Shown: positions 2,521 through 20,845 of the stretch, in pieces
Position numbering within the stretch: position 1 is the first letter of the stretch
How the letters are laid out: each line of letters opens with the position of its first letter
Assembly: GCA_913045895.1 (NCBI GenBank)
Contig: CAJWSQ010000021.1
Span: 1 to 20,891, forward strand
Reading direction: 5' to 3'
Source of the DNA: an uncultured Flavobacteriales bacterium
GTDB lineage: Bacteria > Bacteroidota > Bacteroidia > Flavobacteriales_G > Salibacteraceae
Length of the DNA stretch: 20,891 nt
Translations under genes and position numbers: made by a program
The notes under the pieces: model-generated
Seen by the model: the letters and a program-made list of their open reading frames with translations, nothing else
The model's database searches: none
Told to the model about the DNA's origin: nothing

Positions 2521-2619
2521 GTTAGATGGAATAAAATAATTGGACTCAAGTGAAGATCTGAGTCTGAAATAAGTGAGAAAGACTTTTTCAAGCCTTCCTC
2601 ACACAATGGAATTTATCAA

Positions 2620-4800: not shown

Positions 4801-4825
4801 TTTAGTTAGTTAATTGAGTATTTGA

Positions 4826-5488: not shown

Positions 5489-5496
5489 TGTTTTTA

Positions 5497-6228
5497 TTAT
5501 TCCGCATTACCTCCTTCAGGAGTAATACCTAATTTTTTCTTTAGTTCAGCTAATTCATCACCAGCTTTACTCGCACTTGCTCCTTCAAGAGCTTTGTTGA
5601 TTTCATCATCAACAGATCTACTTTCATTAGCAATCTCTCCGTAACTCTCAGCCAAAGCCTCTTCTTGAGCTACTTTTTCTTTCATGCGCTCCAACATTGA
5701 AACAGTACTTGATGAATCAATTTGAGCCATTTGTTTATTGATATTCTTTGTAGCCGAACTCACTTTTACGCGAGCTTTAAGCGTACGAAGCTCATTTTCA
5801 TATTGGCTAATTTGAGATCTCAATCGTTTGATATTTCCATCCATATTTTCAATAGACTCATCAAACTTCACTTTTTCAGATTTAGATCTTTCTAAGTGTT
5901 TCAAGTTTTCCTCTTTCTTAACCAAAGCTTCACTTGCTAAACGATCAGCTTCTTCAGCACTCAACTCACCTTTTTGAGCTTGTTGTAACAAAAGAATTGC
6001 TTTCTGTTCGTAATCTTTTGACTTATCCTCAAACAATTCAATATCATTTCTAGCTCTAATGCTCAGCGCCTTTACTTCGGCTAAAGCATGTAAGGCTTTG
6101 TCTAAATCTTCTTTCAAATCACGGATTCCTTGTTCCGTCATTTTTATAGGATCTTCTAACTTATCGACAGCAGAATTCGCTTCTGCCTTACCTATAGTAA
6201 ATAGTCTTCTTAGAATATTCATAATCAT
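5497..6228 (-). CDS. pspA: PspA/IM30 (phage shock protein A / Vipp1 / LiaH) family protein, 243 aa.
   Basis: The N-terminus (MIMNILRRLFTIGKAEANSAVDKLEDPIKMTEQGIRDLKEDL) matches the canonical PspA start (MGIFSRF...NALLDKAEDPeKM...). It is entirely coiled-coil and about 240 aa. Neighbours are 5-8 bp away, indicating an operon. Confidence 0.85.
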   Translation of the reverse strand: MIMNILRRLFTIGKAEANSAVDKLEDPIKMTEQGIRDLKEDLDKALHALAEVKALSIRARNDIELFEDKSKDYEQKAILLLQQAQKGELSAEEADRLASEALVKKEENLKHLERSKSEKVKFDESIENMDGNIKRLRSQISQYENELRTLKARVKVSSATKNINKQMAQIDSSSTVSMLERMKEKVAQEEALAESYGEIANESRSVDDEINKALEGASASKAGDELAELKKKLGITPEGGNAE

Positions 6229-6233
6229 AGATA

Positions 6234-6629
6234 TTAGTATTTTGAAAATGTGATTAGTTCGTCAGAGTACTCACTCAGTAATAGACTCAATGAATTGATT
6301 GAACCTTCCAATTCATTTTGATCTAAATTTTCTAACTGTAACGTGTCTCTAAATATGACTTTCTTACCCGTTTCATCAAGAGCAAATGCTCCATGTACGA
6401 TGTCACGATTTTTTATCAGGAGGTTTTTAAAAACATCATTGTTTCCTTCTTTCAACTCAAATAGAAATTGCTCCATGATTAGTATTGGCGAGGCACAAAC
6501 CACCACCAGATTTCGTATCCCTACAGACTCATCTTCAACTACAAATACTCCTTCGGATGCATCTTGATGCGAGATATTATACTCTAGGTCTAATAAAAAG
6601 GATTTTACCTTTTCAAAATGATCACTCAT
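6234..6629 (-). CDS. YbjN-like small cytoplasmic protein (putative sensory-transduction regulator / T3SS-chaperone-like fold), 131 aa. It is the first gene of the operon.
   Basis: A 131-aa acidic protein with alternating beta and helix pattern (GVFVVEDESVGIRNLVVVCASPILIMEQFLFELKE...). It lies directly upstream of pspA with a 5-bp gap. YbjN-family genes commonly partner PspA. The assignment is by composition and context only. Confidence 0.35.
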   Translation of the reverse strand: MSDHFEKVKSFLLDLEYNISHQDASEGVFVVEDESVGIRNLVVVCASPILIMEQFLFELKEGNNDVFKNLLIKNRDIVHGAFALDETGKKVIFRDTLQLENLDQNELEGSINSLSLLLSEYSDELITFSKY

Positions 6630-6827: not shown

Positions 6828-7601
6828 ATGTCAAAAATCGGAAATAACATACGCAAGATAAGAAGCGTCAAAAACCTTAATCAGAGCGACTTTGCCGACT
6901 TATTCGAACTAAAAAGAGCAAGTATTGGAGCTTATGAAGAAGGTAGAGCTGAACCAAAAATCAACACGGTTATTGAAATAGCTAATTATTTTGGCATAAG
7001 CACAGATGATTTGCTTACAAAAGAGCTTTCCGTTAATGATTTATATCGGTTTGACATATTCAGGGAAGATTTAGCTAACGACACCAAACACAACCTGACT
7101 CCCTCTACTGTACCTGTTGACTTAGTACAGATTCCATATATATCAACCAATATTCGGAAGCAGTATTTAAAAGAAAGAAAACTCTCTGAAGTTAAGGATC
7201 AGATCACACTACCTATGAATAAGGGATTCAATTACATTGCTATTGAAATCACAGACAACTCCATGTTTTATAATGAATCAGGAATAAACACCAATGATAT
7301 ATTAATAGGTATTAAACCTGAAAAGCTATCTCCTTCAAATGTTCAAGTTGGTAAGGTTTACATTTTTGAAACAGATCAAGACATCCTCATTCGAGAGGTA
7401 AATCAGAAGAACTTATCATCTCTTGAACTCACACCTTTCAACCCCAATTACTATGCAACCTCTATTCCAGCGAAAGAAATAAAAGCCATTTGGCAACTAG
7501 AAAAGCTAATATCTAATAATATTAGCAATAGATCGGATTTAACGAAACAATTAGAAAACCTTGAGAGCGAAATCAGATTACTAAAACGTAACCTACAGTA
7601 A
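6828..7601 (+). CDS. XRE-family helix-turn-helix plus C-terminal S24 (LexA/CI-type) peptidase domain repressor, 257 aa, with an extra C-terminal coiled-coil tail.
   Basis: The N-terminal HTH_3 signature is IRKIRSVKNLNQSDFADLFELKRASIGAYEEGRAEPKINTVIEIANYFGISTDDLL. The S24 signature is IEITDNSMFYNESGINTNDILIGI (compare LexA GDSM...GI..GD, with the Ser nucleophile in DNSM), followed by a basic K in IREVNQKN. The heptad-like tail is KQLENLESEIRLLKRNLQ. Confidence 0.75.
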   Translation: MSKIGNNIRKIRSVKNLNQSDFADLFELKRASIGAYEEGRAEPKINTVIEIANYFGISTDDLLTKELSVNDLYRFDIFREDLANDTKHNLTPSTVPVDLVQIPYISTNIRKQYLKERKLSEVKDQITLPMNKGFNYIAIEITDNSMFYNESGINTNDILIGIKPEKLSPSNVQVGKVYIFETDQDILIREVNQKNLSSLELTPFNPNYYATSIPAKEIKAIWQLEKLISNNISNRSDLTKQLENLESEIRLLKRNLQ

Positions 7602-7603
7602 AT

Positions 7604-8296
7604 ATGGCTGATAAAATTAGTAGCCTTGTAAATGAGATAAATTCCTACTTATCAGACCGAGTATTATCTCGTCAAGAAAAAAGAGATTTAAAATCTATCA
7701 TTCAATCTATCTCATTGAATGAACATGATAAAACAGTTTTCTTATCAAAAGTTAGAGATTTACTTTTTGAAAATAAGTGGAACGCTTCGAGTGAACAACA
7801 AATTGAATGGTTCTATGAAATCTCTAAGTTGATTATAGCTACAGAAACAAATACTAACGAACACAACTCAAGTGCACGATTTAGCCCAGGAACTTCGTGT
7901 AGAGAAGCCATTTGTAATGCTATTCGATTCGCTAACAAAACCATAAGAATATGTGTTTTCACAATTAGTGATGATGATATCACAGAAGAAATAATCCGTG
8001 CACACAGATTGGGTAAAGACGTTAAAATAATAACTGACAACGATAAATCTTTTGATTTAGGATCTGACATTGAAGAAATGGAAAGAGCAGGCATTCCTGT
8101 AACTATGGATAATACTAGCGCTCACATGCATCATAAATTTGCGCTATTTGATAACAAAAAGTTGATTACAGGAAGTTACAACTGGACAAGATCGGCAGCA
8201 TCTCACAACCATGAAAATATAATTCTTACTCAAGACAAAACATTGGTTGAGGCGTTCATCCACGAGTTTAACACACTATGGAAAGAGTTGAATTAA
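7604..8296 (+). CDS. Phospholipase D-family single-HKD-domain protein (Nuc-like endonuclease/PLD nuclease superfamily), 230 aa, with a ~90-aa N-terminal extension of unknown function.
   Basis: A perfect HKD motif, HMHHKFALFDNKKLITGSYNWT (HxKxxxxD-x6-GSxN). The upstream beta-alpha segment (RICVFTISDDDITEEIIRAHRLGKDVKIITD) is typical of PLDc_2. Its start lies 3 bp after the stop of the XRE-S24 gene, indicating translational coupling. Confidence 0.8.
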   Translation: MADKISSLVNEINSYLSDRVLSRQEKRDLKSIIQSISLNEHDKTVFLSKVRDLLFENKWNASSEQQIEWFYEISKLIIATETNTNEHNSSARFSPGTSCREAICNAIRFANKTIRICVFTISDDDITEEIIRAHRLGKDVKIITDNDKSFDLGSDIEEMERAGIPVTMDNTSAHMHHKFALFDNKKLITGSYNWTRSAASHNHENIILTQDKTLVEAFIHEFNTLWKELN

Positions 8297-8347: not shown

Positions 8348-10420
8348 ATGAAGTTTTTATTGAATACCCTATGCTTTTTACTCTGCATACAGCTTTGCTA
8401 TGCTCAACAAGATTTTTCTGATAAAACATACTTTCTAATTGATTCACTCAACCATTTTGAACTCAGTGGAGATGACAGCATACTTGTATTATCTAAAATA
8501 GAAAGCTATCACCAAGCAACTGAAGACACAAATAGACTCGCCATATTAGTAGAACTGGTAGAAGAATGCTGGAACGATGATGTATGGCCTCGGTATAATT
8601 CAGTGGTTTTATCGCAGGCAACGGATGCTTTAAATAAGATTGATAACCAAAAACTCCGCAACAAATACTTGCATTATCAGGGTGTAGCCTACGCCAATCA
8701 AGGTTACTTACACGATATTCAAAGTGATTTTGATATTGCTGAACAACACTATCTAAAAGCCTTAAAAGCATTTGAAGAAAGTGATGACGAGAAAGGCCAA
8801 GGCAAAATGCTTTACGCTATTGCACTCATTAATGAGGAACGAGGACGGGTACAAGTAGCCATTGATTATTTCAACAAATCACTCCGCCTAGCTGAGGCAA
8901 GTGGCGACTCCACTGGTTTGACTCATTTGTCTATGAGTTTGGGAGATATCCACTCAAGCTTGAGCAATAAAGAGGAAGCAATGGATCACTACAAACGTGC
9001 TTTACAGTTAGCTAAAGGCACTGGTGATAAACGCCTTGAAGGGTTTGCATCTACCACTTTAGCAACCATGTATTTATATCAGGAAGATTATGAACAAGCT
9101 CGCGAATTGAGTCTAAAAGGCATTCAACTTTTAGATGAAGCAAAAGCAGGAGCTGACAAAATAAACGGGTTGGATGTATTGGGTAGAATAGCTGCAAAAC
9201 AAGGTCAACTTGATTCTGCCGAGATGTACTTTACCGAAATCATTAGGTTGGCTGAAAATGCTAATCGACCACAAGATTTAGTACAAGGACTTTACTCACT
9301 TGCTCAAAATGATCTGAAGCGAGGTGATTTTACTAAAGCTGAAAAAAATGCAAAGGAAGCTTATCGTATCACTAAAGAGTTGGACTTAAAATATAAACTG
9401 AGCGATGCCGCTGGTTTACTGGCAGAGATTTACACGCAAACCAATAAGTATAAAGAAGCCAATAAATACTTGTTGGAGTTTAATAATCTGAAAGATACAC
9501 TCCGCAATGAAAACCTTAAAAACCAAGCTTTAAAGCAATCTATAGAATACGAGTACGAAAAACAAAAAGCTGTTGATGAAGCTGAGCATGAAGCCCAATT
9601 AGCAATTGCCGCTGCACGTGAATCCAGACAAAACATCATCATTTGGGCTGTTGCTGCAATCTTAGTTTTAATCAGCATTGCATTGGTGTTGAATTTCTTC
9701 CGTTTACGTACCATTCGAAAACAAAAAGAAGAACTGGATGAAGCATATCATCAACTGGAACTGAGTAAAAACGATAAAATTCTAGCCTCGAACTTGAAGG
9801 CACTTCAGGCGCAGATGAATCCACACTTTATTTTCAATGCGCTGAATTCCATCCAAACATTGGTGTTGCATGGAGACGTAGATAGCTCTTACGATTACAT
9901 CAACAAATTTGCGATGTTAATCAGAGAAACGCTCAATGCTTCTGAGCAAGAATTTATTCCGATTGAAAAAGAGATTGAATCGCTTGAAACGTATTTGAAT
10001 TTAGAAAAGCTAAGATTCAGAGAAGATTTCAATTATCAAATAAAAGCTCCAAATGAAGTTCCAGATAAGTACATCCCTCCTATGCTAATTCAACCGTTTA
10101 TTGAAAATGCACTGAAACATGGCCTTTTCCACAAAGAAACCGATCGTGAGCTGGATGTAAAAATCACTATTTCAGATACACTTACTTGTGTGATTGAAGA
10201 CAACGGAATTGGTAGAAAAGCATCTAAAAAAATCAATCAAAGTAGAAGTGCTAGTCACAAATCATATGCTATTAGCTCTATTAAAAAGCGCTTGGAAATG
10301 ATGCAAGAAAAACTCAAAACAACCATCGGTGTGAATTACGAAGATTTGGAAGAAAATGGCCAAGCTGTTGGAACAAGAGTCACCATCAGAATTCCAATTT
10401 ATGACCGTTCCTCAAATTAA
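8348..10420 (+). CDS. Sensor histidine kinase, LytS/YehU type (His_kinase plus HATPase), with signal peptide, large periplasmic TPR-repeat sensor domain and a single transmembrane helix. 690 aa.
   Basis: Signal peptide MKFLLNTLCFLLCIQLCYAQQ. TPR-like repeats (AIALINEERGRVQVAIDYFNKSLRLAE..., AMDHYKRALQLAK...). Transmembrane helix IIIWAVAAILVLISIALVLNFF. The His_kinase (PF06580-type) motif LKALQAQMNPHFIFNALNSIQ carries the phospho-accepting His. The ATPase-region motifs are PPMLIQPFIENALKHG and IEDNGIG. Confidence 0.85.
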   Translation: MKFLLNTLCFLLCIQLCYAQQDFSDKTYFLIDSLNHFELSGDDSILVLSKIESYHQATEDTNRLAILVELVEECWNDDVWPRYNSVVLSQATDALNKIDNQKLRNKYLHYQGVAYANQGYLHDIQSDFDIAEQHYLKALKAFEESDDEKGQGKMLYAIALINEERGRVQVAIDYFNKSLRLAEASGDSTGLTHLSMSLGDIHSSLSNKEEAMDHYKRALQLAKGTGDKRLEGFASTTLATMYLYQEDYEQARELSLKGIQLLDEAKAGADKINGLDVLGRIAAKQGQLDSAEMYFTEIIRLAENANRPQDLVQGLYSLAQNDLKRGDFTKAEKNAKEAYRITKELDLKYKLSDAAGLLAEIYTQTNKYKEANKYLLEFNNLKDTLRNENLKNQALKQSIEYEYEKQKAVDEAEHEAQLAIAAARESRQNIIIWAVAAILVLISIALVLNFFRLRTIRKQKEELDEAYHQLELSKNDKILASNLKALQAQMNPHFIFNALNSIQTLVLHGDVDSSYDYINKFAMLIRETLNASEQEFIPIEKEIESLETYLNLEKLRFREDFNYQIKAPNEVPDKYIPPMLIQPFIENALKHGLFHKETDRELDVKITISDTLTCVIEDNGIGRKASKKINQSRSASHKSYAISSIKKRLEMMQEKLKTTIGVNYEDLEENGQAVGTRVTIRIPIYDRSSN
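9540..10420 (+). repeat. About 0.88-kb direct repeat (copy 1), which pairs with 11690-12570 (copy 2). It encodes the TM helix plus the entire transmitter half of the two kinases. Nucleotide identity is about 85-90% by eye.
   Basis: The proteins are colinear and almost identical from KQSIEYEYEKQ.. to ..RVTIRIPIYD. The DNA aligns with scattered synonymous changes. Confidence 0.8.
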
Positions 10421-10496: not shown

Positions 10497-12587
10497 ATGA
10501 AGTATCTCTTTAGCATTCTGTGTTTCCTGCTTAGCCTACAATTTTCCTTCGCGCAAAAAGATTTTTCAGACAAAGCCTACTTCTTGGTTGATTCGTTGAA
10601 TTTCATTGAGCTTTCAAAAAACGATTCTCTACTCATTCTTGAAACGGCAAAAAACTACCATGCAGCCAAGCACGATACCACCAAGCTCCAAATCCTTGAA
10701 AATCTGGTGGATGAATGCTGGAATGATGATGTTTGGCCGCGCTACAATCTGTTTATGCGAAATGAAGCCAAAAGACTGATTTCAACCGTTGATTCAGGAA
10801 GCGATGAATGGCGCAGGTATTTGTATTTTCTGGGAAGTGGAACCGGAGGAATCGGCTTCCAATTTGATGTAATTGGTCAAACAGATTCGGCCACTCATTA
10901 CTACCACGAAGCACTGGAGTATTTTATTAAAGGGAATCATACTGAAGGTGAAAGCCTTATTTACGATGCTCTTGCCATGATATATGAATTGAAGGGAGAC
11001 ATGCGTAAGGCGCTTGAATTCTATAACAAGGCTCTACAATTGGCAGAAAAAAATCACGACTCAATCGCAATAGCTAATGCAGCGGTTAGCTTGGGAGATT
11101 TACATGGTGAATTGAAGAATTATCAGCTGAGCCGAGAACTATACTTAGAAGCTATTGAAGCTGCACATGCTACCAATCAAAAACGTGTTGAAGGATTCAC
11201 TTACACCTCATTAGCAACCGACTATGTCGACAGAAATAAAACTGACAGCGCAAAAATCCTGACTAAGATCGGATTGAAAATCTTGGAAGATTCCGGAAAC
11301 GAAAATACCATGAGTAATGGATTTAACATGCTCGGAAATATTGCGCTTTTTGAAAAAAAACTTGACACCGCTCGATACTATTTCAATGAAATGGATCGGA
11401 TTGCCATAGCCAATCATCAGCCCGAGGATATGATTATAGCTCAGAGTAATCTTTACAGAGTTGAAAGAGCTTCTGGGAATTACGCGAAAGCTAAAATCCA
11501 CGCTCTAAACGGATATCGGGTAGCTAAGGCCAACGATTTCCCTGGCCTATTGAGCAGAACTTCTAAAGATTTGGCTCAAATTTACGCCCAACAAAACCAA
11601 AGCGATTCCGCCTATAAATATTTATTGGAATACTCCATTTTGAGTGATAGCATAGTAAACACCGAGCTTAAAAATGAAGCGATCAAACAATCGATAGAAT
11701 ACGAATACGAAAAACAACAGGCAATTGATGAGGCTGAACACGAAGCCGAAATGGCTATTGCTGCTGCACGTGAATCTAGGCAAAACATTATCATTTGGGC
11801 AGTTGCCGCAATCTTAGTTTTAATCAGCATTGCATTGGTGATGAATTTCTTCCGTTTACGCACCATTCGAAAACAAAAAGAAGCGTTAGATGAAGCATAT
11901 CATCAACTGGAATTGAGTAAAAACGATAAGATTCTTGCATCGAATTTAAAGGCACTTCAGGCACAAATGAATCCGCATTTTATTTTCAATGCGTTAAATT
12001 CCATCCAAACATTGGTGTTGCATGGAGATGTAGATAGCTCTTACGATTACATCAATAAATTCGCGATGTTGATCAGAGAAACGCTCAATGCTTCTGAACA
12101 AGAATTTATTCCGATAGAAAAAGAAATTGAATCACTTCAAACGTATTTGAAATTAGAGAAGCTTCGGTTTAGAGATGACTTCAATTATGAGATCAACACG
12201 CCAGATCGCATTCCAAACAAGTACATCCCTCCTATGCTGATTCAGCCATTTATTGAAAACGCACTGAAACATGGTCTTTTCCACAAAGAAACCGATCGTG
12301 AGTTGGATGTAAAAATCACTATTTCAGATACACTTATTTGTGTGATTGAAGATAACGGAATTGGTAGAGAAGCATCTAAAAAAATCAATCAAAGTCGCAA
12401 TGCAGATCACAAATCATACGCCATTGGCTCAATTAAAAAGCGATTGGAAATGATGCAAGAAAAACTCAAAACAACCATCGGTGTGAATTACGAAGACTTG
12501 GAAGAAAATGGTACCGCAGTCGGAACACGAGTTACCATTAGAATTCCGATTTACGACAGTTCGTCAAATAAAACCAACGCTGCGTAA
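10497..12587 (+). CDS. Paralogous TPR-sensor histidine kinase (LytS/His_kinase type), 696 aa. The C-terminal ~295 aa are near-identical to the upstream kinase, and the TPR sensor domain is divergent.
   Basis: The ORF-track entry 10356..12587 overlaps the upstream gene. The in-frame ATG at 10497 gives the start MKYLFSILCFLLSLQFSFAQKDFSDKAYFLVDSLN, homologous to the HK1 start MKFLL...YAQQDFSDKTYFLIDSLN. It has the same TM helix, H-box (MNPHFIFNALNSIQ) and ATPase motifs. Confidence 0.85.
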   Translation: MKYLFSILCFLLSLQFSFAQKDFSDKAYFLVDSLNFIELSKNDSLLILETAKNYHAAKHDTTKLQILENLVDECWNDDVWPRYNLFMRNEAKRLISTVDSGSDEWRRYLYFLGSGTGGIGFQFDVIGQTDSATHYYHEALEYFIKGNHTEGESLIYDALAMIYELKGDMRKALEFYNKALQLAEKNHDSIAIANAAVSLGDLHGELKNYQLSRELYLEAIEAAHATNQKRVEGFTYTSLATDYVDRNKTDSAKILTKIGLKILEDSGNENTMSNGFNMLGNIALFEKKLDTARYYFNEMDRIAIANHQPEDMIIAQSNLYRVERASGNYAKAKIHALNGYRVAKANDFPGLLSRTSKDLAQIYAQQNQSDSAYKYLLEYSILSDSIVNTELKNEAIKQSIEYEYEKQQAIDEAEHEAEMAIAAARESRQNIIIWAVAAILVLISIALVMNFFRLRTIRKQKEALDEAYHQLELSKNDKILASNLKALQAQMNPHFIFNALNSIQTLVLHGDVDSSYDYINKFAMLIRETLNASEQEFIPIEKEIESLQTYLKLEKLRFRDDFNYEINTPDRIPNKYIPPMLIQPFIENALKHGLFHKETDRELDVKITISDTLICVIEDNGIGREASKKINQSRNADHKSYAIGSIKKRLEMMQEKLKTTIGVNYEDLEENGTAVGTRVTIRIPIYDSSSNKTNAA

Positions 12588-12622
12588 AGTAAATTTGCAC
12601 AACCAGTTACTAGTAATTTGAT

Positions 12623-13363
12623 TTGAACTCCATGAATAAAATACGCGCAATAATAGTTGATGATGAAGCCAGTGCACGCGAAAACTTGGCACTACTCATT
12701 AATCGATTCTGCCCCAATATTGAGGTGCTTTCATCATTCAATTTATTGAAAAAGGCGGTTGATTATTTACAAAATAACGAGGTTGATGTAGTTTTTTTGG
12801 ATGTTGAAATGCCCGAACATGCTGGTTATGAAATCGTGGACTTTTTTGATGAAATCAATTTCGATATCGTGTTTTGTACAGCTTACGATAAGTACGCCAT
12901 CAAGGCATTTGAAATCTCTGCAATTGATTATTTACTGAAACCAGTAGACATCACACGTTTAAAACAGGCCGCTGAGAAACTTCAGGAGAAACAACTTTTC
13001 AGAATCACCCAAGAACAAGTCAATCAAATAAATAGCTCGTTTAGAAACACCATAAAAGTAATGGATCGTGGTGAGCGTGTTCTGCTAAACAAAACAGATA
13101 TTATTGCTATTGAAGGTCAATCTGCTTACAGTAAAATTTACACCCTCGATAAAAACTACACCGCCAGTAAAAACATTGCGCAACTGGAAGAAGAATTGGT
13201 GAATGATTCGTTTTTCTACCGCAGTCAAAAATCGTGGATTGTAAACCTCAACTACATTGACAAAGTCAATAAAACCGATAAAATAATCCATCTCCAACAA
13301 GGTATTGATGCTAAAGTATCGCGCCAAAAGTCAAAAGAATTTTACGAGTTAATCAACTTGTAA
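12623..13363 (+). CDS. LytTR-family response regulator (REC receiver plus LytTR DNA-binding domain), 246 aa.
   Basis: REC signature: KIRAIIVDDEASARENLALLI...VDVVFLDVEMPEHAGYEIV...IVFCTAYDKYAIKAFEISAIDYLLKP. LytTR signature: VLLNKTDIIAIEGQSAYSKIYT...ELVNDSFFYRSQKSWIVNLNYIDKV. It lies 35 bp after the second kinase. Confidence 0.9.
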   Translation: MNSMNKIRAIIVDDEASARENLALLINRFCPNIEVLSSFNLLKKAVDYLQNNEVDVVFLDVEMPEHAGYEIVDFFDEINFDIVFCTAYDKYAIKAFEISAIDYLLKPVDITRLKQAAEKLQEKQLFRITQEQVNQINSSFRNTIKVMDRGERVLLNKTDIIAIEGQSAYSKIYTLDKNYTASKNIAQLEEELVNDSFFYRSQKSWIVNLNYIDKVNKTDKIIHLQQGIDAKVSRQKSKEFYELINL

Positions 13364-13366
13364 AAG

Positions 13367-13399
13367 CACTTCCTCAAATAAAAATCACACTTCCTCAAA
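13367..13399 (+). promoter_or_regulatory. Pair of direct repeats cACTTCCTCAAA (13367-13378 and 13388-13399) with 21-bp periodicity (12-bp repeat plus 9-bp spacer). This is a candidate LytTR response-regulator binding site just upstream of a TAGGTTTG -7 box (13428-13435).
   Basis: Two perfect copies of CACTTCCTCAAA start exactly 21 bp apart. LytTR regulators (the AgrA/ComE/PlnC paradigm) bind 9-10-bp direct repeats with a 12-bp spacer. The same arrangement recurs upstream of the next two genes. A TAnnTTTG match lies about 30 bp downstream. Confidence 0.55.
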
Positions 13400-13469
13400 G
13401 CTATTTTTCTTCGATTGAAAGGGACTCTAGGTTTGCTTGATCTTATTCAAACAAACAACATACCTTATC

Positions 13470-15002
13470 ATGAAAAGAATTTTACTCAGCCTGGCTTTAG
13501 CAAGTAGCAGTTTATTGAGCATTCAAGCACAATCAACCATTTACGTAAACGATGATGCTACTGGAAACAACGATGGATCTTCTTGGGCAAACGCATACAA
13601 CGATTTAAACGAAGCGTTGACGAACAGCTCTACAAATGATGAAATCTGGATTGCAGAAGGATTTTATACCAGAACATCTTCTACCGAAACTTTTAGAGTT
13701 GATAACGATGTTAGAATTTACGGTGGTTTTAGCGGAAATGAAACGGACAAAGACCAACGAAACATAAAAGCAAATCCTACGGTTGTTAGTGGAGATGTAA
13801 GTTGGAACGACCAAGGTATTGTTAGCAGTTCAAACAGCTATATGCAAGACAATGCCGAGCACGTATTTGAAGTACATAGCACCAACAGAGCCGTTTTTGA
13901 TGGACTTATTATTGAACACGCTTTTAGTACAACAGCAGCAGGTGGTGGAATTTATGTGTACTCTCAATCGATGAACAATTTGGAAATTTCAAACTGTATT
14001 ATCAGAGAGAATGTGTCTGCCAACAGAGCCGGAGTTCTTTTCTATTCAGAAGTTCCAGCGGCATTTTTGATGTACAACAACATTATTGAAAAGAATGTGA
14101 ATGCAGATTTCAACTCTGCTTATACCGTTGAATACAGAATTACTGGAAACAGCCACGTTTATTCAGAAGTACACATGGTGAACAACCTGTTTAACGACAA
14201 CATTACAGAAGCATTTGGTATGGGTGGAACTTGCGGAAGGTTTACCATCACACCTGGAGGTTGCGAGATAGACATTTTCCTAATCAATAACACTTTCATC
14301 AATAATGCTCAAGGCAGCAACATACCTGGCTTATTCGCTTATGAGTCTCATGGAGCTTCAAGCTACTTCTACCCTCACATCAGCAACAATATCTTCTACA
14401 ACAATTATGAAGCAACAGACATCTTTAGAGTTTCAAATGGAAGTGCTAATACATTAGTTATCTTCCCAGAAGATTCTCATAACAATATTCAAGATTTTCC
14501 TGATCTACAAGGGTTAACCAATACGCAAATCATTAACGCTACGCCTTTTGTAGATTTTGTAAATGGAGATTACAGACCAATTGCAGCTTACGAAACTGGT
14601 GGAAATCCAGCCATGTACAGCAATTCAAATTTGATAGATGTATTTGCCGATCAAATGTATCCAGAGTTAGATTTAGCAGGAAATCCAAGATTTAATACTC
14701 AAGGAGAAATAGCTATTGGAGCTAGTCAGGCAGGTCCAAATACTTTGAGTGTAGATGATTTGAAAGAAACTGCCAATTTGAGCATCTTCCCCAATCCAGC
14801 TGACAACATCATTACCATAAAACATGAGTTAACTGGTAACTTAGACATTTCGATTTACACGTTAACTGGAGCTCAGGTTTCTAACACCGTTCTTTCTGAT
14901 AATTTAAACACGATTGATGTTTCTAATTTACCAACTGGCTACTACATTTTGAAAGCTAAATCAGGCAATCAAGAACACGTAGAAAAACTCATTATAAAAT
15001 AA
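13470..15002 (+). CDS. Secreted T9SS cargo protein (510 aa from the ATG). It has a signal peptide, a conserved N-terminal beta-helix-family motif, a parallel beta-helix-like repeat region and a Por-secretion-system C-terminal sorting domain. Paralog 1 of 3.
   Basis: The ORF track starts at a TTG (13437). The ATG at 13470 gives MKRILLSLALASSSLLSIQAQ, a typical signal peptide. The motif IYVNDDATGNNDGSSWANAYNDLNEAL...IWIAEGFYT...YGGFSGNET is shared with the next two genes. The C-terminal domain is FPNPADNIITIKHEL...GYYILKAKSGNQEHVEKLIIK. Confidence 0.8.
   Translation: MKRILLSLALASSSLLSIQAQSTIYVNDDATGNNDGSSWANAYNDLNEALTNSSTNDEIWIAEGFYTRTSSTETFRVDNDVRIYGGFSGNETDKDQRNIKANPTVVSGDVSWNDQGIVSSSNSYMQDNAEHVFEVHSTNRAVFDGLIIEHAFSTTAAGGGIYVYSQSMNNLEISNCIIRENVSANRAGVLFYSEVPAAFLMYNNIIEKNVNADFNSAYTVEYRITGNSHVYSEVHMVNNLFNDNITEAFGMGGTCGRFTITPGGCEIDIFLINNTFINNAQGSNIPGLFAYESHGASSYFYPHISNNIFYNNYEATDIFRVSNGSANTLVIFPEDSHNNIQDFPDLQGLTNTQIINATPFVDFVNGDYRPIAAYETGGNPAMYSNSNLIDVFADQMYPELDLAGNPRFNTQGEIAIGASQAGPNTLSVDDLKETANLSIFPNPADNIITIKHELTGNLDISIYTLTGAQVSNTVLSDNLNTIDVSNLPTGYYILKAKSGNQEHVEKLIIK
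14781..14999 (+). repeat. About 220-bp T9SS C-terminal-domain-coding repeat, copy 1 of 4. The other copies are at 16880-17098, 18948-19166 and 20568-20786.
   Basis: The four 73-aa C-terminal domains are over 75% identical. The DNA of copies 3 and 4 is the most similar. Confidence 0.7.
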
Positions 15003-15030
15003 CATCTAAACGATTCATGTTTGAATAATC

Positions 15031-15070
15031 AAAGGCTCGGTATCTCTTGATATTGGATCTTTGTGTTTTT
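15031..15070 (+). terminator. Degenerate rho-independent terminator-like hairpin plus T-tract after paralog 1 (AGGCTCGGTATC..GATATTGGATCTTTGTGTTTTT).
   Basis: An imperfect stem with several G-U pairs followed by TTTGTGTTTTT. It is homologous to the cleaner terminators after paralogs 2 and 3. Confidence 0.4.
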
Positions 15071-15079
15071 ATAAAATGT

Positions 15080-15111
15080 ACTTCCTCAAATAAAAATTGC
15101 ACTTCCTCAAA
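15080..15111 (+). promoter_or_regulatory. Second instance of the ACTTCCTCAAA direct-repeat pair (cores 15080-15090 and 15101-15111, 21 bp apart), with a TACGTTTG -7 box at 15140-15147.
   Basis: It has the same 21-bp periodicity and the same position relative to the TAnnTTTG box as at 13367-13399. Confidence 0.55.
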
Positions 15112-15196
15112 GTTATTTCTTTAAGCGTTTTTGAGCCGCTACGTTTGCGGCATCTTATTCAAACAAACAACATTAATTCAAATGAAACACAGAGCT

Positions 15197-17101
15197 ATGA
15201 AAAAAGCTTTACTCAGTTTAGCCTTGGCTACTGGCGCTATGTTTAGCGCAAAAGCACAAACTATTATTTACGTTGATGCAGATGCAACAGGAAGCAACAA
15301 CGGTTCTACATGGGCAAGTGCCTACACCAATTTAGCAAATGCACTAGATAATAACGGTGTTACAGGTGCACAGATTTGGATTGCTGAAGGAACCTACACT
15401 CCTTATTATTCTAACTCCTCTTTCAATATTAGACATGGCGAAAAACTATATGGTGGTTTTAACGGTACTGAAACTTCGATTTCGCAAAGAAATCCAGCAC
15501 AAAACATAACCATCTTAAGTGGTGATGTTTACGATGACGATTCTTTAGGCAATTACTATAACAATGCTAAAAGAATTATTAATGTAGATCCATATGACCC
15601 AAATAACACATTGAATGGTGAAGAAGTGGTTCTATTAGATGGGCTTACTATTTCAGACGCTTACAGTACAAGTACTGCTGGAGGTGGGCTTGGAACTGAT
15701 TATCCCGGAGTATACCAAAAGGGTATTAGAATTTACAACTGCATCTTCGAAAACAACACCAATCGTTATCAGTCTGCGTTTAACTTCTATACGAGTTATG
15801 CTGATCCGGTTCTTGAAGTTTCGAATTCAATCTTCAGAAACAATCATGCATTAGAAGCATACACAGTAGAGTTTAGAGTTACTAACACTACCGGAGTTGA
15901 GTATCATGCAACATTCACAAACAACCTATTCGAAAACAATACAACAGTTGACTCTGTAACCGCAGGCGGTGGTGTAGCAGGTAGATTTGCAAACTTCTCT
16001 TTTACTACGTTTGAAATTCAATTGACCAACAACACATTCATTGGAAACAGCAACAATAATGGCAACTTCAATAAATGTCTATTTGTTTCAGAAAAAGGTA
16101 GTTCTGCAAATGCCGATATCATCATGGATTTCGACAACAACCTGTTTTATGACAATGTCAATTTACACAACATTGTAATGGACAATAACGCTATCTGGAC
16201 CACCAAATACATTGGTGCAAATTGTAAGAATAACGGTGGCGACTGGAACCAATTAAACAGCTTTGTTGGAAGCCTTATTAGTCCGAATGATCCTTTTGAA
16301 GATTACGCTGCAGGCGACTTAAGACCAACAACAAGTTACTCTACACAAGGTGATACAGCTTCTTATCTTTCTACTTGGACAGATTACGATTTAGCGGGCG
16401 AAGACCGTATGGATTATGTAAATGGCACAATCGCTGTTGGAGCTTACCAAAGAGGTGTAGTTTGCCAAAATACAACTGCAACCATCAATGCTGAAGTATG
16501 TGAATATTATGAATCTCCGAGCGGTGATGAAGACTGGACAGTTTCCGGAACTTATGTAGATACTATTCCTAATTCGTGTGGCATGGATAGCATCATTACG
16601 GTAAATCTCACCGTGATAGTTGACTGGGGAGTTACCATTTCAAACAATGGAACCACACTTACCGCGAATCAGGACAATGCCACTTACCAATGGTACAGCT
16701 GCAACGAGCCTAAAGGGCCTGTAGATAGCGCTACAAGCCAATCATTTACGCCAACCACTCCGGGTATTTATGCTGTGGAAATCACTTTTGACAGTTGCGA
16801 AGTTTTTTCAGATTGCTTTGAAGTTGACAGCGTTGCAGCTCCTTTAGGAATTTCAGATGTAAGTTCAGCAGCTAACTTTCACATTTATCCTAATCCGGCA
16901 AATGACATCATCACCGTAAAACACGAGTTGAATAGCAACATTCAAGTTTCTATTTACACGTTAACTGGAGCACAAGTATCAAACACCATTGTTTCAGGTA
17001 ACTCTAACACAATTGATGTTTCTACTCTACCTGCTGGTTACTACATTTTGAAAGCAAAATCTGGTGATTTAGAACACGTAGAAAAACTCATTATTCAATA
17101 A
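15197..17101 (+). CDS. Secreted T9SS cargo protein, paralog 2 (634 aa from the ATG at 15197; an alternative ATG is at 15182). It has a signal peptide, the beta-helix-family N-terminal motif, a Cys-containing middle module and the T9SS C-terminal domain.
   Basis: Start MKKALLSLALATGAMFSAKAQ, homologous to the MKRILLSL starts of the other paralogs. The ORF-track start at 15131 is a TTG inside the promoter cassette. Motif IIYVDADATGSNNGSTWASAYTNLANAL...IWIAEGTYTP...YGGFNGTET. C-terminal domain FHIYPNPANDIITVKHEL...YYILKAKSGDLEHVEKLIIQ. Confidence 0.8.
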   Translation: MKKALLSLALATGAMFSAKAQTIIYVDADATGSNNGSTWASAYTNLANALDNNGVTGAQIWIAEGTYTPYYSNSSFNIRHGEKLYGGFNGTETSISQRNPAQNITILSGDVYDDDSLGNYYNNAKRIINVDPYDPNNTLNGEEVVLLDGLTISDAYSTSTAGGGLGTDYPGVYQKGIRIYNCIFENNTNRYQSAFNFYTSYADPVLEVSNSIFRNNHALEAYTVEFRVTNTTGVEYHATFTNNLFENNTTVDSVTAGGGVAGRFANFSFTTFEIQLTNNTFIGNSNNNGNFNKCLFVSEKGSSANADIIMDFDNNLFYDNVNLHNIVMDNNAIWTTKYIGANCKNNGGDWNQLNSFVGSLISPNDPFEDYAAGDLRPTTSYSTQGDTASYLSTWTDYDLAGEDRMDYVNGTIAVGAYQRGVVCQNTTATINAEVCEYYESPSGDEDWTVSGTYVDTIPNSCGMDSIITVNLTVIVDWGVTISNNGTTLTANQDNATYQWYSCNEPKGPVDSATSQSFTPTTPGIYAVEITFDSCEVFSDCFEVDSVAAPLGISDVSSAANFHIYPNPANDIITVKHELNSNIQVSIYTLTGAQVSNTIVSGNSNTIDVSTLPAGYYILKAKSGDLEHVEKLIIQ

Positions 17102-17133
17102 CCCACAAACTATTTATGTTTGAATAATCAGAG

Positions 17134-17170
17134 GCTCGATACTGAAAAGTATCGGGCTTTTGTGTTTTGT
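17134..17170 (+). terminator. Rho-independent terminator: GCTCGATACT-gaaa-AGTATCGGGC followed by TTTTGTGTTTTG.
   Basis: A 10-bp stem (one G-U pair), a 4-nt loop and a T-rich tract immediately after the stop codon of paralog 2. Confidence 0.65.
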
Positions 17171-17178
17171 AGAAATGC

Positions 17179-17210
17179 ACTTCCTCAAATAATAATTACA
17201 CTTCCTCAAA
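17179..17210 (+). promoter_or_regulatory. Third instance of the ACTTCCTCAAA direct-repeat pair (cores 17179-17189 and 17200-17210, 21 bp apart), with a TACGTTTG -7 box at 17239-17246.
   Basis: Identical architecture to the two upstream cassettes. The conserved downstream stretch is CGTTTGCGnCATCTTATTCAAACAAACAACATTAA. Confidence 0.55.
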
Positions 17211-17294
17211 GCTATTTCGCAGCGCGTGTTTGAGCCTCTACGTTTGCGCCATCTTATTCAAACAAACAACATTAACACTAAGAAAAAAAGGAAC

Positions 17295-19169
17295 ATGAAA
17301 CGAATTTTACTCAGCTTAGTATTATTGGCAACAAACTTTGTTGCAGCTAATGCGCAAACTGTAATTTACGTTGATGCAGATGCAACTGGAAACAACGATG
17401 GATCTTCATGGGCAAATGCATACACCAGTCCAAAAACAGCTTTAGATAGCAATACAGTTATCGGTGCAGAGGTTTGGATTGCTGAAGGCACGTATACACC
17501 GCCCGGAATTAATGATTATTTTATACTTCGCTTAGGTGAAAAATTATATGGTGGTTTTGATGGTACAGAAACAACTAGAGATCAAAGAGATCCTGAAGCG
17601 CATGTAACCATTCTAAGTGGTGATATTGATGGTGATGATGCTAGCGGAAATTACAGTAACAACGCCTATAAACTTGTTTATGTAGAAACAAATACACCGG
17701 GAGTTCCAGATGAAGTATTAATTGTAGACGGAATTACTTTTTATGGTGCTTACAGTACTTGGGGATCTGGTGCTGCTTTTGGAGCTAATCAAGGTATTAT
17801 TGGTAGCAAAGAACTTCGCATCAACAATTGCACATTTGACCAAAACGTTTGCTATTATGCCCCTGCTTTCAATTTTAGATCTGCTGCAGATTCTCAATTG
17901 GTAACTGTTACAAATTGCATTTTCAGCAACAATAGATACTTAACTGGCTATGTTTTTGAACTAGTAGTGGCAACTCAAACAAGTGGTTCAAAACAGGCTA
18001 TAATCGCCAATAATCTATTCATAGATAATTACAAATTTTCTACTTCAACATTCAACAGCGTTGCATTTATTGATATTAACACACCTAGCACATATTCTGT
18101 GCAATTCACCAACAACACTTTTGTAATTGATTCAACTGTTGCCAATGGATCAACCATGCCTGGAATCATAAAAGTGCGAAGTAGTCAAGTTAATGGTGAT
18201 GTAGTTTTGGATTTTGATAACAACCTTTTCTACACGGCTGATAGTACCAACTTTACCTTGGTGCAAGATATTGGATCATTTCCTTCTACGTCATATACCA
18301 ACAGCAGTAACACAAACAACGGTGGTAACTGGTCTGGTTTAAGTGTATTAAGTAATAGTGTAATTGATACGGTAAATTCTCCGTTTTTAGATTTCGCTAA
18401 TGGTGATTACAGACCAACAACTACTTACAATATACAAGGAGATGTAAACTCATACGACACCAACTGGTCTGCATTTGATTTAGCAGGCGAAAGTAGAGTA
18501 AACCCATACAGTGGTTCAATTGCAATTGGTGCCTACGAATATGTTTCATGTATGCCAACATCAGCTACAATCCTTCAAGTAGCTTGTTTGGAATATACTT
18601 CACCAAGTGGAAAAGTTTGGAATGCTACAGGAACTTATTTTGACACCATTCAAAATGCTTGTGGGTTAGACAGTCTAATGAGATTCGAAATCTTGATTGC
18701 ACTTAACCCTACTGTAACTGTTGCACCAAGCGGTACAGTATTGATGGCAAATCAAGGTTTAGCAACTTACCAATGGTATGACTGCGCAACCAATCAACCT
18801 ATTTCAGGAGCTACAGACCAAACATTTCAACCAACCCAAACAGGCGATTATGCTGTAGAAGTAACCTTAGATAGCTGCACAGCTCTTTCTGATTGTCACA
18901 ATGTAGTGGTTACAGGAGTAAATGATTTGAAGAAAGCCTCTAACTTGAATATCTATCCCAACCCTGCCGATAACATCATTACCGTAAAACATGAATTATC
19001 TAGCAACCTTGAAGTTTCTATTTATACAGTGACTGGAGCTCAAGTTTCAAGCACTATCGTTTCAGGCAACACAAACACCATTGATGTTTCTGCTCTACCT
19101 GCAGGTTATTACATATTAAAAGCTAAAGCAGGAAATTTAGAACACGTTGAAAAACTGATTATTCAATAG
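17295..19169 (+). CDS. Secreted T9SS cargo protein, paralog 3 (624 aa from the ATG at 17295). It has the same N-terminal beta-helix-family motif, Cys-containing module and T9SS C-terminal domain.
   Basis: Start MKRILLSLVLLATNFVAANAQ. Motif VIYVDADATGNNDGSSWANAYTSPKTAL...VWIAEGTYTP...YGGFDGTETTRDQR. It shares CxEYxSPSG..W..SGTYxDTIxNxCGxDS and ATYQWYxC...G.YAVE.T.DSC..SDC modules with paralog 2. C-terminal domain LNIYPNPADNIITVKHEL... Confidence 0.8.
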   Translation: MKRILLSLVLLATNFVAANAQTVIYVDADATGNNDGSSWANAYTSPKTALDSNTVIGAEVWIAEGTYTPPGINDYFILRLGEKLYGGFDGTETTRDQRDPEAHVTILSGDIDGDDASGNYSNNAYKLVYVETNTPGVPDEVLIVDGITFYGAYSTWGSGAAFGANQGIIGSKELRINNCTFDQNVCYYAPAFNFRSAADSQLVTVTNCIFSNNRYLTGYVFELVVATQTSGSKQAIIANNLFIDNYKFSTSTFNSVAFIDINTPSTYSVQFTNNTFVIDSTVANGSTMPGIIKVRSSQVNGDVVLDFDNNLFYTADSTNFTLVQDIGSFPSTSYTNSSNTNNGGNWSGLSVLSNSVIDTVNSPFLDFANGDYRPTTTYNIQGDVNSYDTNWSAFDLAGESRVNPYSGSIAIGAYEYVSCMPTSATILQVACLEYTSPSGKVWNATGTYFDTIQNACGLDSLMRFEILIALNPTVTVAPSGTVLMANQGLATYQWYDCATNQPISGATDQTFQPTQTGDYAVEVTLDSCTALSDCHNVVVTGVNDLKKASNLNIYPNPADNIITVKHELSSNLEVSIYTVTGAQVSSTIVSGNTNTIDVSALPAGYYILKAKAGNLEHVEKLIIQ

Positions 19170-19202
19170 TTACAATATCCAATTTCATGTTTATCATAAA
19201 AA

Positions 19203-19238
19203 GCTCGGTATCAACAGATATCGGGCTTTTGTGTTTTT
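19203..19238 (+). terminator. Rho-independent terminator: GCTCGGTATC-aaca-GATATCGGGC followed by TTTTGTGTTTTT.
   Basis: A 10-bp stem (two G-U pairs) and a T-tract directly after paralog 3. Confidence 0.6.
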
Positions 19239-19319
19239 AAAAAAGGCATCCAACTTATGTATTAACCAACTTTTACTACCTCATTTTGCGTCTCATTAAA
19301 AAACTAACAATAATCCAAA

Positions 19320-20789
19320 ATGAGAAAAATTTTACTCTTAGTCTTTTCTGTATGTTCAATTGCGCAGGCACAAGTTTTTAATTGGAGTTCAGAAGTAGAC
19401 CCATCGTACAACAATGTTTCTGTTCACACGACTTCGCCATCAGGTGAAGTATACCTTAGTAAGCACACCAAAAACCCTTCTCCATCGTATTACGGAACAA
19501 ACGACATAGTTAAATACGATACTGCTGGAAATGAACAATGGCAATATTCTATTGGTGGAAATGCTCGGGTTCAAACCATGTTGTATCATGAAGGTACTCT
19601 TTTTTTTAGCGGAGTTTTTAGAGATTCTTTAAGATTCAACGATTCCTTAATCACCATCTCATCATTTCTTGATTTAAGCTTTATTGTATCAATTGATAGC
19701 GATGGCAACTTCAATTGGTTAACCACTCCATGGACAACAAAACGAGCTATCTATAATCTCAAGCAATATGACCAAACGCTTTATGCTGTTACAATTGGAT
19801 CTGGCTGGGGGTCAGAATCAATCGCTGAATTTGACTTAAACGGTAATTTACAGAATGAAGAAACTTTTAGTGGTGCCGTATCCATTTCAGATTTTGTTTT
19901 TGATGATTCAGATAATATCTACATCAGTGGCTACTGCAATTCGGGCGCTACTTTTGGTAATCTAACCATTCCTAATACAGGGTCTAGTTACAATTCATTT
20001 ATTCTAAAAACAGATGCCAATTTCAATCCTATTTGGTTAGATGCTGGTCCGCATATCACGTTCGATTTTGAGCCTAAAGTCTACATGGTTGATGATACAC
20101 TTTATTATTTCCATGCCCGTAAAACACCAACTCACGGAGCAACTCCATACATCTTTAAATATACTCAACAAGGTGATTTAGCTGATTCTATCTCATTCAG
20201 AAATTCTTGGTCACCGTATTATGAACATGGATGGACAAAACATAATGGTGAAGACGTTATCGTTATGCTAGAGCTCAAAATTGCAGCTGAATTTGGTGGT
20301 TTTCCGCTCTACTTTTTAGATAAAAACCTATCCATACTCAGAGCTGATACGTTAAGCAGTCTACATATATCTTACACTCATTTTAGTGCATCTGATGAAG
20401 CTATTTGCATTACTGGCAAAGCCAATTACGGTATCACATATAATAGTGACACGCTGCTTTCATTTAATGGTGGAGATGGAAATGGTATCATTCACTTCAG
20501 CTACGACCAAGACACTACAGGGAATCACTTAAGCACTGAACTAATCTCAAGCAACGATTTACCTGTTCGTCTTTACCCCAATCCAGCCGATGATATCATT
20601 ACTATTCAACATGAGCTATCAAGCAACCTAGAGGTTTCGATATACACAGTAACTGGAGCTCAGGTTTCAAGCACCATTATTTCAGGAAACTCAAAAACCA
20701 TTGATGTTTCTACTCTACCGGCCGGTTATTACATTTTAAAAGCTAAGGCAGGCGATTTAGAACACGTTGAAAAACTGATTATTCAATAA
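19320..20789 (+). CDS. Secreted T9SS cargo protein (489 aa) with a signal peptide, a repetitive beta-propeller-like (SBBP-like) body and the T9SS C-terminal domain. It is unrelated in its body to the three upstream paralogs.
   Basis: Signal peptide MRKILLLVFSVCSIAQAQ. A repeated motif (..DxxGNxxW..; SDNIYISGYCNSGATFGNLTI) suggests beta-propeller blades. The C-terminal domain LYPNPADDIITIQHELSSNLEVSIYTVTGAQVSS...YYILKAKAGDLEHVEKLIIQ is nearly identical to that of paralog 3. Confidence 0.75.
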   Translation: MRKILLLVFSVCSIAQAQVFNWSSEVDPSYNNVSVHTTSPSGEVYLSKHTKNPSPSYYGTNDIVKYDTAGNEQWQYSIGGNARVQTMLYHEGTLFFSGVFRDSLRFNDSLITISSFLDLSFIVSIDSDGNFNWLTTPWTTKRAIYNLKQYDQTLYAVTIGSGWGSESIAEFDLNGNLQNEETFSGAVSISDFVFDDSDNIYISGYCNSGATFGNLTIPNTGSSYNSFILKTDANFNPIWLDAGPHITFDFEPKVYMVDDTLYYFHARKTPTHGATPYIFKYTQQGDLADSISFRNSWSPYYEHGWTKHNGEDVIVMLELKIAAEFGGFPLYFLDKNLSILRADTLSSLHISYTHFSASDEAICITGKANYGITYNSDTLLSFNGGDGNGIIHFSYDQDTTGNHLSTELISSNDLPVRLYPNPADDIITIQHELSSNLEVSIYTVTGAQVSSTIISGNSKTIDVSTLPAGYYILKAKAGDLEHVEKLIIQ

Positions 20790-20810
20790 TCCTATTATAC
20801 AATTCATGTA

Positions 20811-20845
20811 AGGCTTGATATCACTTGATGTCAGGCCTTTTATTT
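20811..20845 (+). terminator. Rho-independent terminator: AGGCTTGATATCA ... TGATGTCAGGCCT stem followed by TTTTATTTTT.
   Basis: A ~12-13-bp stem with two G-U pairs directly after the stop at 20789, followed by a T-tract. Confidence 0.55.

Follow-up and report, generated by a model that had tools for sequence, protein, structure and literature searches.

The 20,891-nucleotide stretch analyzed here (the window; contig CAJWSQ010000021.1 from an uncultured Flavobacteriales bacterium) carries on its plus strand two sensor histidine kinase genes (8348-10420 and 10497-12587), a gene for a response regulator composed of a receiver and a LytTR domain (12632-13363), and three genes for beta-helix paralogs bearing a type IX secretion system (T9SS) C-terminal domain, referred to as cargo genes 1, 2, and 3 (13470-15002, 15182-17101, and 17295-19169). 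A fourth T9SS gene is located at 19320-20789. Each of the three cargo genes is preceded by a pair of direct repeats, and these pairs, as candidate operators of the adjacent LytTR regulator, are the subject of this work.

The motif ACTTCCTCAAA is found exactly six times in the window (13368-13378, 13389-13399, 15080-15090, 15101-15111, 17179-17189, and 17200-17210), and the copies form three pairs whose start-to-start distance is 21 bp in every case, as an initial annotation of this DNA had proposed. When one mismatch is allowed, 7 matches are obtained against 0.81 expected, a number reached in 0 of 100 shuffles, the seventh being a lone one-mismatch copy at 9298, within a kinase gene. The repeat unit extends one base upstream to a 12-mer, (C/T)ACTTCCTCAAA, starting at 13367/13388, 15079/15100, and 17178/17199. 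Operator 1 (13367-13399), predicted at -73 to -41, is composed of CACTTCCTCAAA at 13367-13378 and 13388-13399 separated by a 9-nt spacer, and its first 12-mer begins 3 nt after the end of the regulator open reading frame (ORF) at 13363. Operator 2 (15079-15111) has TACTTCCTCAAA at 15079-15090 and CACTTCCTCAAA at 15100-15111, and operator 3 (17178-17210) has CACTTCCTCAAA at 17178-17189 and 17199-17210, all of them on the plus strand. If the 9-nt core TTCCTCAAA is considered, the spacer is 12 nt, and if the 12-mer is considered it is 9 nt, with a period of 21 bp in the three window promoters. LytTR sites consist of two 9- to 11-nt repeats separated by 11 to 13 nt (PMC4847170), and the core with its 12-nt spacer fits this description, in line with the LytTR-type geometry claimed earlier. 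A position-weight scan for repeat pairs over the whole window, on both strands and even at a low threshold, gave nothing beyond the three sites. Also, the fourth intergenic region (19170-19319) holds no repeats, as had been noted before, and the fourth T9SS gene, lying outside the predicted regulon, is an internal comparison.

In all three promoters, a TAnnTTTG box (13428-13435, 15140-15147, and 17239-17246) is found exactly 28 nt past the proximal repeat, being TAGGTTTG for cargo gene 1 and TACGTTTG for cargo genes 2 and 3; the initial annotation had recognized the box but had counted 28 to 30 bp from the end of the distal repeat. The core promoter of cargo gene 1 (13400-13435) comprises the conserved GCTATTT, TTTT at -36 to -33 (13404-13407), a 20-nt spacer, and the -7 box. 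The flavobacterial sigma-A box TAnnTTTG spans -12 to -5 (PMC9723704), and placing this consensus on the three promoters predicts transcription starts near 13440, 15152, and 17251. On these consensus-derived positions, the repeats would occupy about -73 to -62 and -52 to -41, with the proximal one ending 4 nt before a TTT(C/T) at -36 to -33. The consensus of the Bacteroidota -33 element is TTTG, and TTTC or TTTT at this place is, judged by its letters, an imperfect and weak -33 element. Repeats located directly upstream of such an element correspond to an activator geometry, and the published AgrA sites, direct repeats that immediately precede promoters whose core elements are suboptimal (PMC4227749), have a similar layout. 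A sigma-70 consensus scan of the window was uninformative (27 matches against 28.6 in shuffles), as expected for Bacteroidota. No Rfam family was matched anywhere in the window, so that the operator region does not correspond to any RNA element described so far.

All three cargo genes share one 21-nt block without any difference, TCTTATTCAAACAAACAACAT, which runs from their predicted transcription start (13441-13461, 15153-15173, and 17252-17272). It is partly kept in two related loci described below, L004 (as caattattcaaacaaataacac) and L071, and is not found in Owenweeksia, L003, or L055. This block could be a leader or translation-initiation element, or a mere part of a copied cassette.

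The three window promoters are paralogous copies. Intergenic regions 2 and 3 align over their full length, including the terminator hairpin and the 21-nt block of the 5′ untranslated region, and a unit of C-terminal domain, terminator, and promoter looks to have been copied or homogenized within the window. Agreement among the three pairs thus represents one event and not three, and for this reason the alternative that the repeats are functionless, duplicated together with the cargo genes as an intergenic cassette, needed a test on orthologs. The full-length similarity of these regions and the apparent homogenization of the C-terminal domains are what such a cassette would leave behind.

Loci for this comparison were retrieved by three independent routes, namely regulator homologs, the DNA motif, and cargo homologs. 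The regulator search, for which the ATG-start version of the protein was the query, gave 2823 LytTR regulator homologs at E ≤ 1e-20. The gene order kinase, LytTR regulator, and, immediately downstream, T9SS C-terminal-domain gene(s) holds for all loci in which the regulator has 49% or more identity to that of the window, and searches with cargo orthologs likewise led to His_kinase and LytTR pairs. Exact repeat pairs are present in L005 (regulator 98% identical), L055 and L125 (Acidiluteibacter ferrifornacis, 77%), and L202 (75%), at three promoters of L071 (Crocinitomicaceae metagenome-assembled genome SAT99), and at one of the two promoters of L004 (70%), the other having CACTTCCTCAAA / CAGTTCGTCAAA. 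The remaining pairs are CACTTCCTCAAA / TAGTTCCTCAAA in L002 (Owenweeksia hongkongensis, 74%), CACTTACTCAAA / CACTTCCTCAAA in L003 (72%), CATTTGCTCAAT / CATTTACTCAAA in L203 (68%), and TCATTCCTCAAA / CCATTGCTCAAG in L197 (54%). Throughout these loci, whose regulators range from 54 to 98% identity, the repeats are 21 bp apart and, counting from the base that opens the distal 12-mer, the -7 box starts at +61, with one mismatch in the box of L197 and L203.

A phylogenetic footprint over eight independent lineages (the window, L002, L003, L004, L055, L202, L203, and L197) gave a mean pairwise identity of 0.86 for the distal 12-mer, 0.85 for the proximal 12-mer, 0.77 for the 8 nt after the proximal repeat (GCTATTTC, including the -33-like TTT), and 0.81 for the -7 box. 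The corresponding values are 0.50 for the inter-repeat spacer, 0.34 for the 20-nt promoter spacer, and 0.41 for the downstream sequence, and there are no indels in either spacer across the promoters of the eight lineages; the same pattern is obtained with six. Conservation in orthologous intergenic regions was the point on which the initial annotation had staked its proposal, and what is found is that repeats, 21-bp spacing, and 28-nt gap are all preserved in the eight lineages, with the intervening sequence randomized. The footprint contradicts the functionless cassette: single-copy orthologous loci in other genera retain the repeats and their spacing although flanks and spacers are randomized (spacers about 34% identical), the internal 21-bp duplication is itself conserved, and diverged repeat pairs of identical geometry precede an unrelated gene. 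This alternative is hence highly improbable. Moreover, in L004 the site lies about 260 bp past the regulator gene, yet 28 nt from the -7 box, and it recurs before the second cargo gene of that locus, which indicates that the element goes with the cargo promoter rather than with the regulator gene and its 3′ end. Taken as a whole, the repeats are very probably a functional cis-element.

With respect to the protein that binds them, the sequence of the operator shifts in step with the divergence of the LytTR domain. Domains at least 66% identical to that of the window go with CACTTCCTCAAA-type repeats, those about 46% identical go with CCATTcCTCAA variants, and in Brumimicrobium salinarum (L200) an unrelated repeat, GTYGTTYAGCAATT, with a 20-bp period lies between a divergent kinase-regulator pair and the operon that contains the cargo ortholog. 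Repeats of 20-bp period, weak in sequence, are also seen in L199 and L201, those of L199 standing before two genes of which one is a T9SS cargo gene. When metagenomes were scanned with the regulator as query, the only close locus was the Acidiluteibacter-like L125. A further 71 LytTR regulators were distant (23 to 47% identity), and just 2 of them have a T9SS gene nearby.

As a side observation on the Brumimicrobium locus, the direct repeat at 3276-3309 (PJNI01000003.1) reads GTCGTTTAGCAATT / GTTGTTCAGCAATT, 20 bp apart. The operon there has three genes, for a 363-aa protein of no assigned family, a Laminin_G_3 T9SS protein, and the cargo ortholog in the last position, and it is divergent from the genes for a 930-aa His_kinase protein and the LytTR regulator.

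It could be argued that the repeats are a conserved site of another transcription factor and that the LytTR system controls something else. A protein with HTH_XRE and Peptidase_S24 domains is encoded in the window at 6828-7601, and an S24 gene is found near the L003 locus. However, synteny of the S24 gene is not kept from locus to locus, and XRE and LexA-type proteins bind palindromes. In every lineage examined, the site is found only beside orthologs of this LytTR regulator, it drifts as the LytTR domain diverges, and direct repeats with a 21-bp period are a signature of LytTR proteins (PMC4847170). Control by another regulator therefore seems unlikely, and we infer that the adjacent LytTR regulator is quite probably the protein that binds the repeats.

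The direction of the control was weighed in a similar manner. The regulator could bind as a repressor or roadblock, for example limiting read-through from the kinase-regulator operon or occluding an UP-like element. There is no terminator between the regulator stop codon (13363) and operator 1, so that some read-through into cargo gene 1 is possible, and some LytTR proteins do repress, as AgrA does at bsaA (PMC4227749). On the other hand, operators 2 and 3 come after strong terminators, where there would be no read-through to block. Terminator-like hairpins follow cargo gene 1 (15031-15062, with a fold of -9.8 kcal/mol and a T-rich tail, homologous to those after genes 2 and 3), cargo gene 2 (17129-17162), and cargo gene 3 (19199-19230), all three on the plus strand and the last two being intrinsic terminator-like, and another follows the fourth T9SS gene (20810-20839). 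Also, the sites, at -73 to -41, lie clear of the core promoter on its upstream side, and the -33 element, with TTTC or TTTT, is an imperfect one. The 28-nt gap that leads to the -7 box is strictly invariant, which suggests that RNA polymerase is contacted stereospecifically. Repression is thus a poor candidate, and activation by the LytTR regulator would be the expected outcome.

The regulator (plus strand, with an alternative TTG start at 12623) matches the receiver family PF00072 (E = 1.1e-18) and the LytTR family PF04397 (E = 1.1e-17), both above the gathering scores. Its predicted phosphoacceptor is Asp57, numbered from the ATG at 12632, and an exact look-up of the version that starts at the TTG gave no record. 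Its nearest NCBIfam models are BtsR (E = 6e-36) and LytR, both below cutoff, and its closest named ortholog is that of Owenweeksia hongkongensis, with 74% identity. Kinase 1 has a signal peptide, a periplasmic tetratricopeptide repeat (TPR) region of about 400 aa, one transmembrane helix, His_kinase (PF06580), and HATPase_c, according to Pfam and the translation. Kinase 2 is a paralog with the same TPR and PF06580 composition, its ATG at 10497 being inferred from the signal peptide. The PF06580 match has an E value of about 1e-23 in both proteins, and HATPase_c is weak (1.8e-5 and 3.4e-4). The earlier claim of a LytTR regulator preceded by two TPR sensor kinases thus holds. No Pfam match to the multi-pass 5TM-Lyt sensor was found in either kinase, where the signal peptide, the TPR region, and the single helix are present instead, which makes these kinases a structural variant within the LytS/YehU/YpdA family.

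The two kinases are 61% identical overall, but this value hides a TPR sensor half of about 40% identity and a region from the transmembrane helix to the C terminus of about 95%. This suggests, at the level of sequence, a recent duplication followed by rapid divergence of the sensor, or gene conversion of the transmitter half. Also, it suggests two inputs feeding one output, and the proposal of two sensors acting on one regulator is consistent with these values. Orthologous loci mostly have a single kinase. In L005, with the 98%-identical regulator, a second gene is found upstream of the kinase, at the position of kinase 1, although it is cut by the contig end and has no Pfam data.

Under the proposed mechanism, two LytS/PF06580-type membrane kinases would sense different periplasmic inputs through their different TPR domains and, by means of nearly identical transmitters, both would phosphorylate the single LytTR regulator. 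The phosphorylated regulator would then bind as a head-to-tail dimer to the two 12-bp direct repeats (consensus CACTTCCTCAAA), whose starts are 21 bp, that is, two helical turns, apart. From -73 to -62 and -52 to -41, it would recruit or stabilize RNA polymerase at sigma-A promoters with a good TAnnTTTG and an imperfect -33 element, and three separately terminated, monocistronic genes for beta-helix T9SS cargo would be switched on. The sequence evidence makes it likely that the repeat pairs are the operator of the regulator encoded at 12632-13363 and that this regulator activates the three cargo genes.

Several points weigh against this model. The repeats are assigned to the LytTR regulator by linkage and by a geometry typical of the family, with co-variation as support, and the transcription starts are predicted from a consensus, not mapped. 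The mutual identity of the three window promoters adds little, as they are one cassette, possibly homogenized along with the adjoining C-terminal-domain and terminator sequence. The Agr, Com, and Pln systems are autoregulated, whereas scanning the window, with the threshold set low, gave no repeat pair ahead of the genes for the kinases or the regulator, and L198, with a regulator of 52% identity, has no convincing repeat pair with this geometry. Finally, a scan of the genome collection for STTCCTCAAA-N11-STTCCTCAAA gave at least 118 stretches, most of them tandem coding repeats of 21 bp (Prevotellamassilia, Nostoc, Tenacibaculum, and Ignavibacteria). Among the matches listed, TAnnTTTG stands at the right offset only in L055 and L071, both adjacent to a regulator gene, and the known Owenweeksia site is not among them, so that such a scan cannot delimit the regulon.

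In relatives, the operator is found not only before the T9SS cargo considered by the initial annotation but also before a leucine-rich repeat (LRR) lipoprotein gene outside the T9SS and, once, before the regulator gene itself. In L003 and L004, the cargo genes are followed by a gene for a 195-aa LRR lipoprotein (7271-7858 and 15247-15834, respectively); the two proteins, which are not cargo paralogs, share 74% identity. Repeat pairs precede them at 7171-7203 and 15136-15168, with the diverged sequences CACTTACTCAAT/CAGTAACTCAAA and CATTTACTCAAA/CAGTTACTCAAA, and in both cases the 21-bp distance is followed by 28 nt and then by TAGGTTTG or TAAGTTTG. This gene is likely an additional regulon member in these relatives, as far as its promoter sequence indicates; no homolog of it is visible in the window. 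In L125, CCATTCCTAAAA and CCATTCCTAAAG lie 21 bp apart at 4926-4994, with TTTATTTG at +61, where the kinase gene ends, with which the pair overlaps, and shortly before the regulator gene, and autoregulation may occur, to judge by this arrangement, in the Acidiluteibacter-like lineage (L125) only. In the window, a single half-site CAGTTCGTCAAA, with the same sequence as the proximal repeat at promoter 2 of L004, is found at 12557-12568, inside the 3′ end of kinase 2, and is followed by TAAATTTG at 12590-12597, 25 to 34 nt ahead of the regulator start codon. Its geometry is unlike that of the operator, and the half-site with TAAATTTG (12557-12597) may be a separate promoter for the regulator.

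Regarding the cargo, gene 1 encodes a 510-aa protein with a signal peptide, a right-handed parallel beta-helix, and a type A T9SS C-terminal domain, gene 2 a 639-aa paralog (ATG at 15182, alternative ATG at 15197), and gene 3 a 624-aa paralog recognized by Pfam and alignments. The fourth T9SS gene encodes 489 aa, with a passenger unrelated to those of cargo 1 to 3. All four genes match Por_Secre_tail (PF18962, E = 1e-15 to 2e-16), and the NCBIfam model TIGR04183 is matched as well. The passengers of the cargo proteins are 33 to 43% identical, with values for that of cargo 2 of 35% against cargo 1 and 43% against cargo 3. The four C-terminal domains (14775-15002, 16874-17101, 18942-19169, and 20562-20789) had been called near-identical, which overstates a protein identity of 68 to 84% (76 to 82% in DNA). 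From their sequences, these domains seem to be locally homogenized, possibly along with the terminator-promoter cassette.

The AlphaFold2 (AF2) model of cargo 1 (predicted local distance difference test, pLDDT, of 90.1) has regular three-strand coils that form a right-handed beta-helix, followed by a beta-sandwich C-terminal domain. Foldseek matches in the Protein Data Bank (PDB) are Rhombotarget A, pectate lyase Pel9A, and the RbmB lyase, with modest E values of 1e-4 to 2e-3, and also phage tailspikes. Moreover, the modeled C-terminal domain superposes in Foldseek on T9SS-bound substrate C-terminal domains (8glk_D, TM-score of 0.87, normalized to the target), and distant sequence homologs of the cargo carry Beta_helix (PF13229) and PMP-repeat domains. 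The description of these proteins as beta-helix T9SS cargo is well founded on PF18962, the confident AF2 model, and these Foldseek matches. Their description as adhesin-like is a guess, the fold being equally like those of polysaccharide lyases and tailspikes, and the proteins may be adhesins or glycan-active enzymes.

The window has a GC content of 37%. Upstream of the kinases on the plus strand, the repressor-like HTH_XRE and Peptidase_S24 gene is followed by a PLD-like gene (7604-8296), which is separated from kinase 1 by a 51-nt gap. The first part of the window (1-6629) is occupied by a minus-strand cluster with an ORF of more than 866 aa running off the left end, 726-aa and 220-aa proteins without a Pfam match, PspA/IM30 (5497-6228), and YbjN/CesT_Tir_1 (6234-6629).

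Full-text literature searches on LytTR with T9SS, Flavobacterium, Bacteroidetes, or Bacteroidota returned no description of such control, the matches being only genome descriptions that name both, and no paper defining the operator of a PF06580-paired Bacteroidota LytTR regulator or tying one to T9SS cargo. Bacteroidota have a very large number of LytTR regulators that are paired with PF06580 kinases, and their operators have been little touched. This locus offers an operator defined in sequence, a geometry precise to the single base, natural operator variants, and an operator-free T9SS gene as internal control, and genomes of named strains exist for the relatives Owenweeksia hongkongensis and Acidiluteibacter ferrifornacis. 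It bears on how a LytTR activator docks at the unusual -33/-7 promoter of Bacteroidota, and it would be a first handle on the signal-dependent control of single T9SS cargo genes rather than of the machinery. The probable switch is of a well-known kind in an unstudied setting, useful and testable, and mechanistically unsurprising.

A broader and rather speculative idea, for which the present data give slim odds, is that a family of lyase-like beta-helix T9SS proteins is hard-wired to its own LytTR system in a marine Flavobacteriales clade (Owenweeksia, Acidiluteibacter, Crocinitomicaceae, and Brumimicrobium-like), with the periplasmic TPR sensors detecting a substrate or product of the secreted protein, or else cargo that builds up in the periplasm. 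If true, T9SS cargo would be governed by a circuit that senses substrate or provides feedback on secretion, and that resembles the hybrid two-component systems of polysaccharide utilization loci. A duplicated sensor half of the kinase would then bring further inputs to an unchanged output.

Compared with the known systems, the locus shares with AgrA, ComE, PlnC, and BlpR the direct repeats of about 21-bp period upstream of suboptimal promoters and the use of one site by several targets. Regulators of this type bind as dimers and activate (PMC4227749, PMC4847170). However, the Agr, Com, Pln, and Blp systems have HPK10-type kinases (AgrC and ComD), peptide pheromones, dedicated exporters, and positive autoregulation, none of which is present in the window, where no pheromone gene, ABC/C39 exporter, or AgrB-like protein is found among the genes. 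The absence of a pheromone, an exporter, and an autoregulatory site indicates that this is not a quorum-sensing module of the Agr/Com type.

Within Bacteroidota, a two-component system tied to the T9SS is PorY/PorX/SigP of Porphyromonas gingivalis (cited in PMC9723704). PorX/PorY act through an extracytoplasmic function (ECF) sigma factor on the genes of the secretion machinery, whereas the predicted targets of the window regulator, acting directly, are a few cargo genes and not the machinery. FimS of P. gingivalis is also a periplasmic-TPR sensor kinase that controls cell-surface proteins, as predicted for the window kinases, and the TPR region of kinase 1 weakly matches FimS in NCBIfam, with an E value of 6e-19 that falls far below cutoff. 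The transmitter domain of FimS is of a different type, and its partner regulator FimR is not known to be a LytTR protein.

A close similarity is seen with YpdA/YpdB and BtsS/BtsR (YehU/YehT) of Escherichia coli in terms of the PF06580 kinase family, the regulator architecture of receiver and LytTR domain, and the lack of a peptide pheromone. Also, YpdB and BtsR use a direct repeat of about 10 nt with an 11- to 13-nt spacer upstream of a single adjacent or nearby target, the YpdB repeat being GGCATTTCAT (PMC4847170). The sensors differ, being of the 5TM-Lyt/GAF membrane type in YpdA and BtsS and a periplasmic TPR region with one transmembrane helix in the window, and so do the targets, which are transporters in E. 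coli and T9SS-secreted beta-helix proteins here. In addition, the window locus has two kinases per regulator, a Bacteroidota -33/-7 promoter, and an unrelated repeat sequence. The proposed mechanism is that of a canonical LytTR system, and the novelty resides in the phylum, the type of promoter, the use of TPR sensors, and the class of targets.

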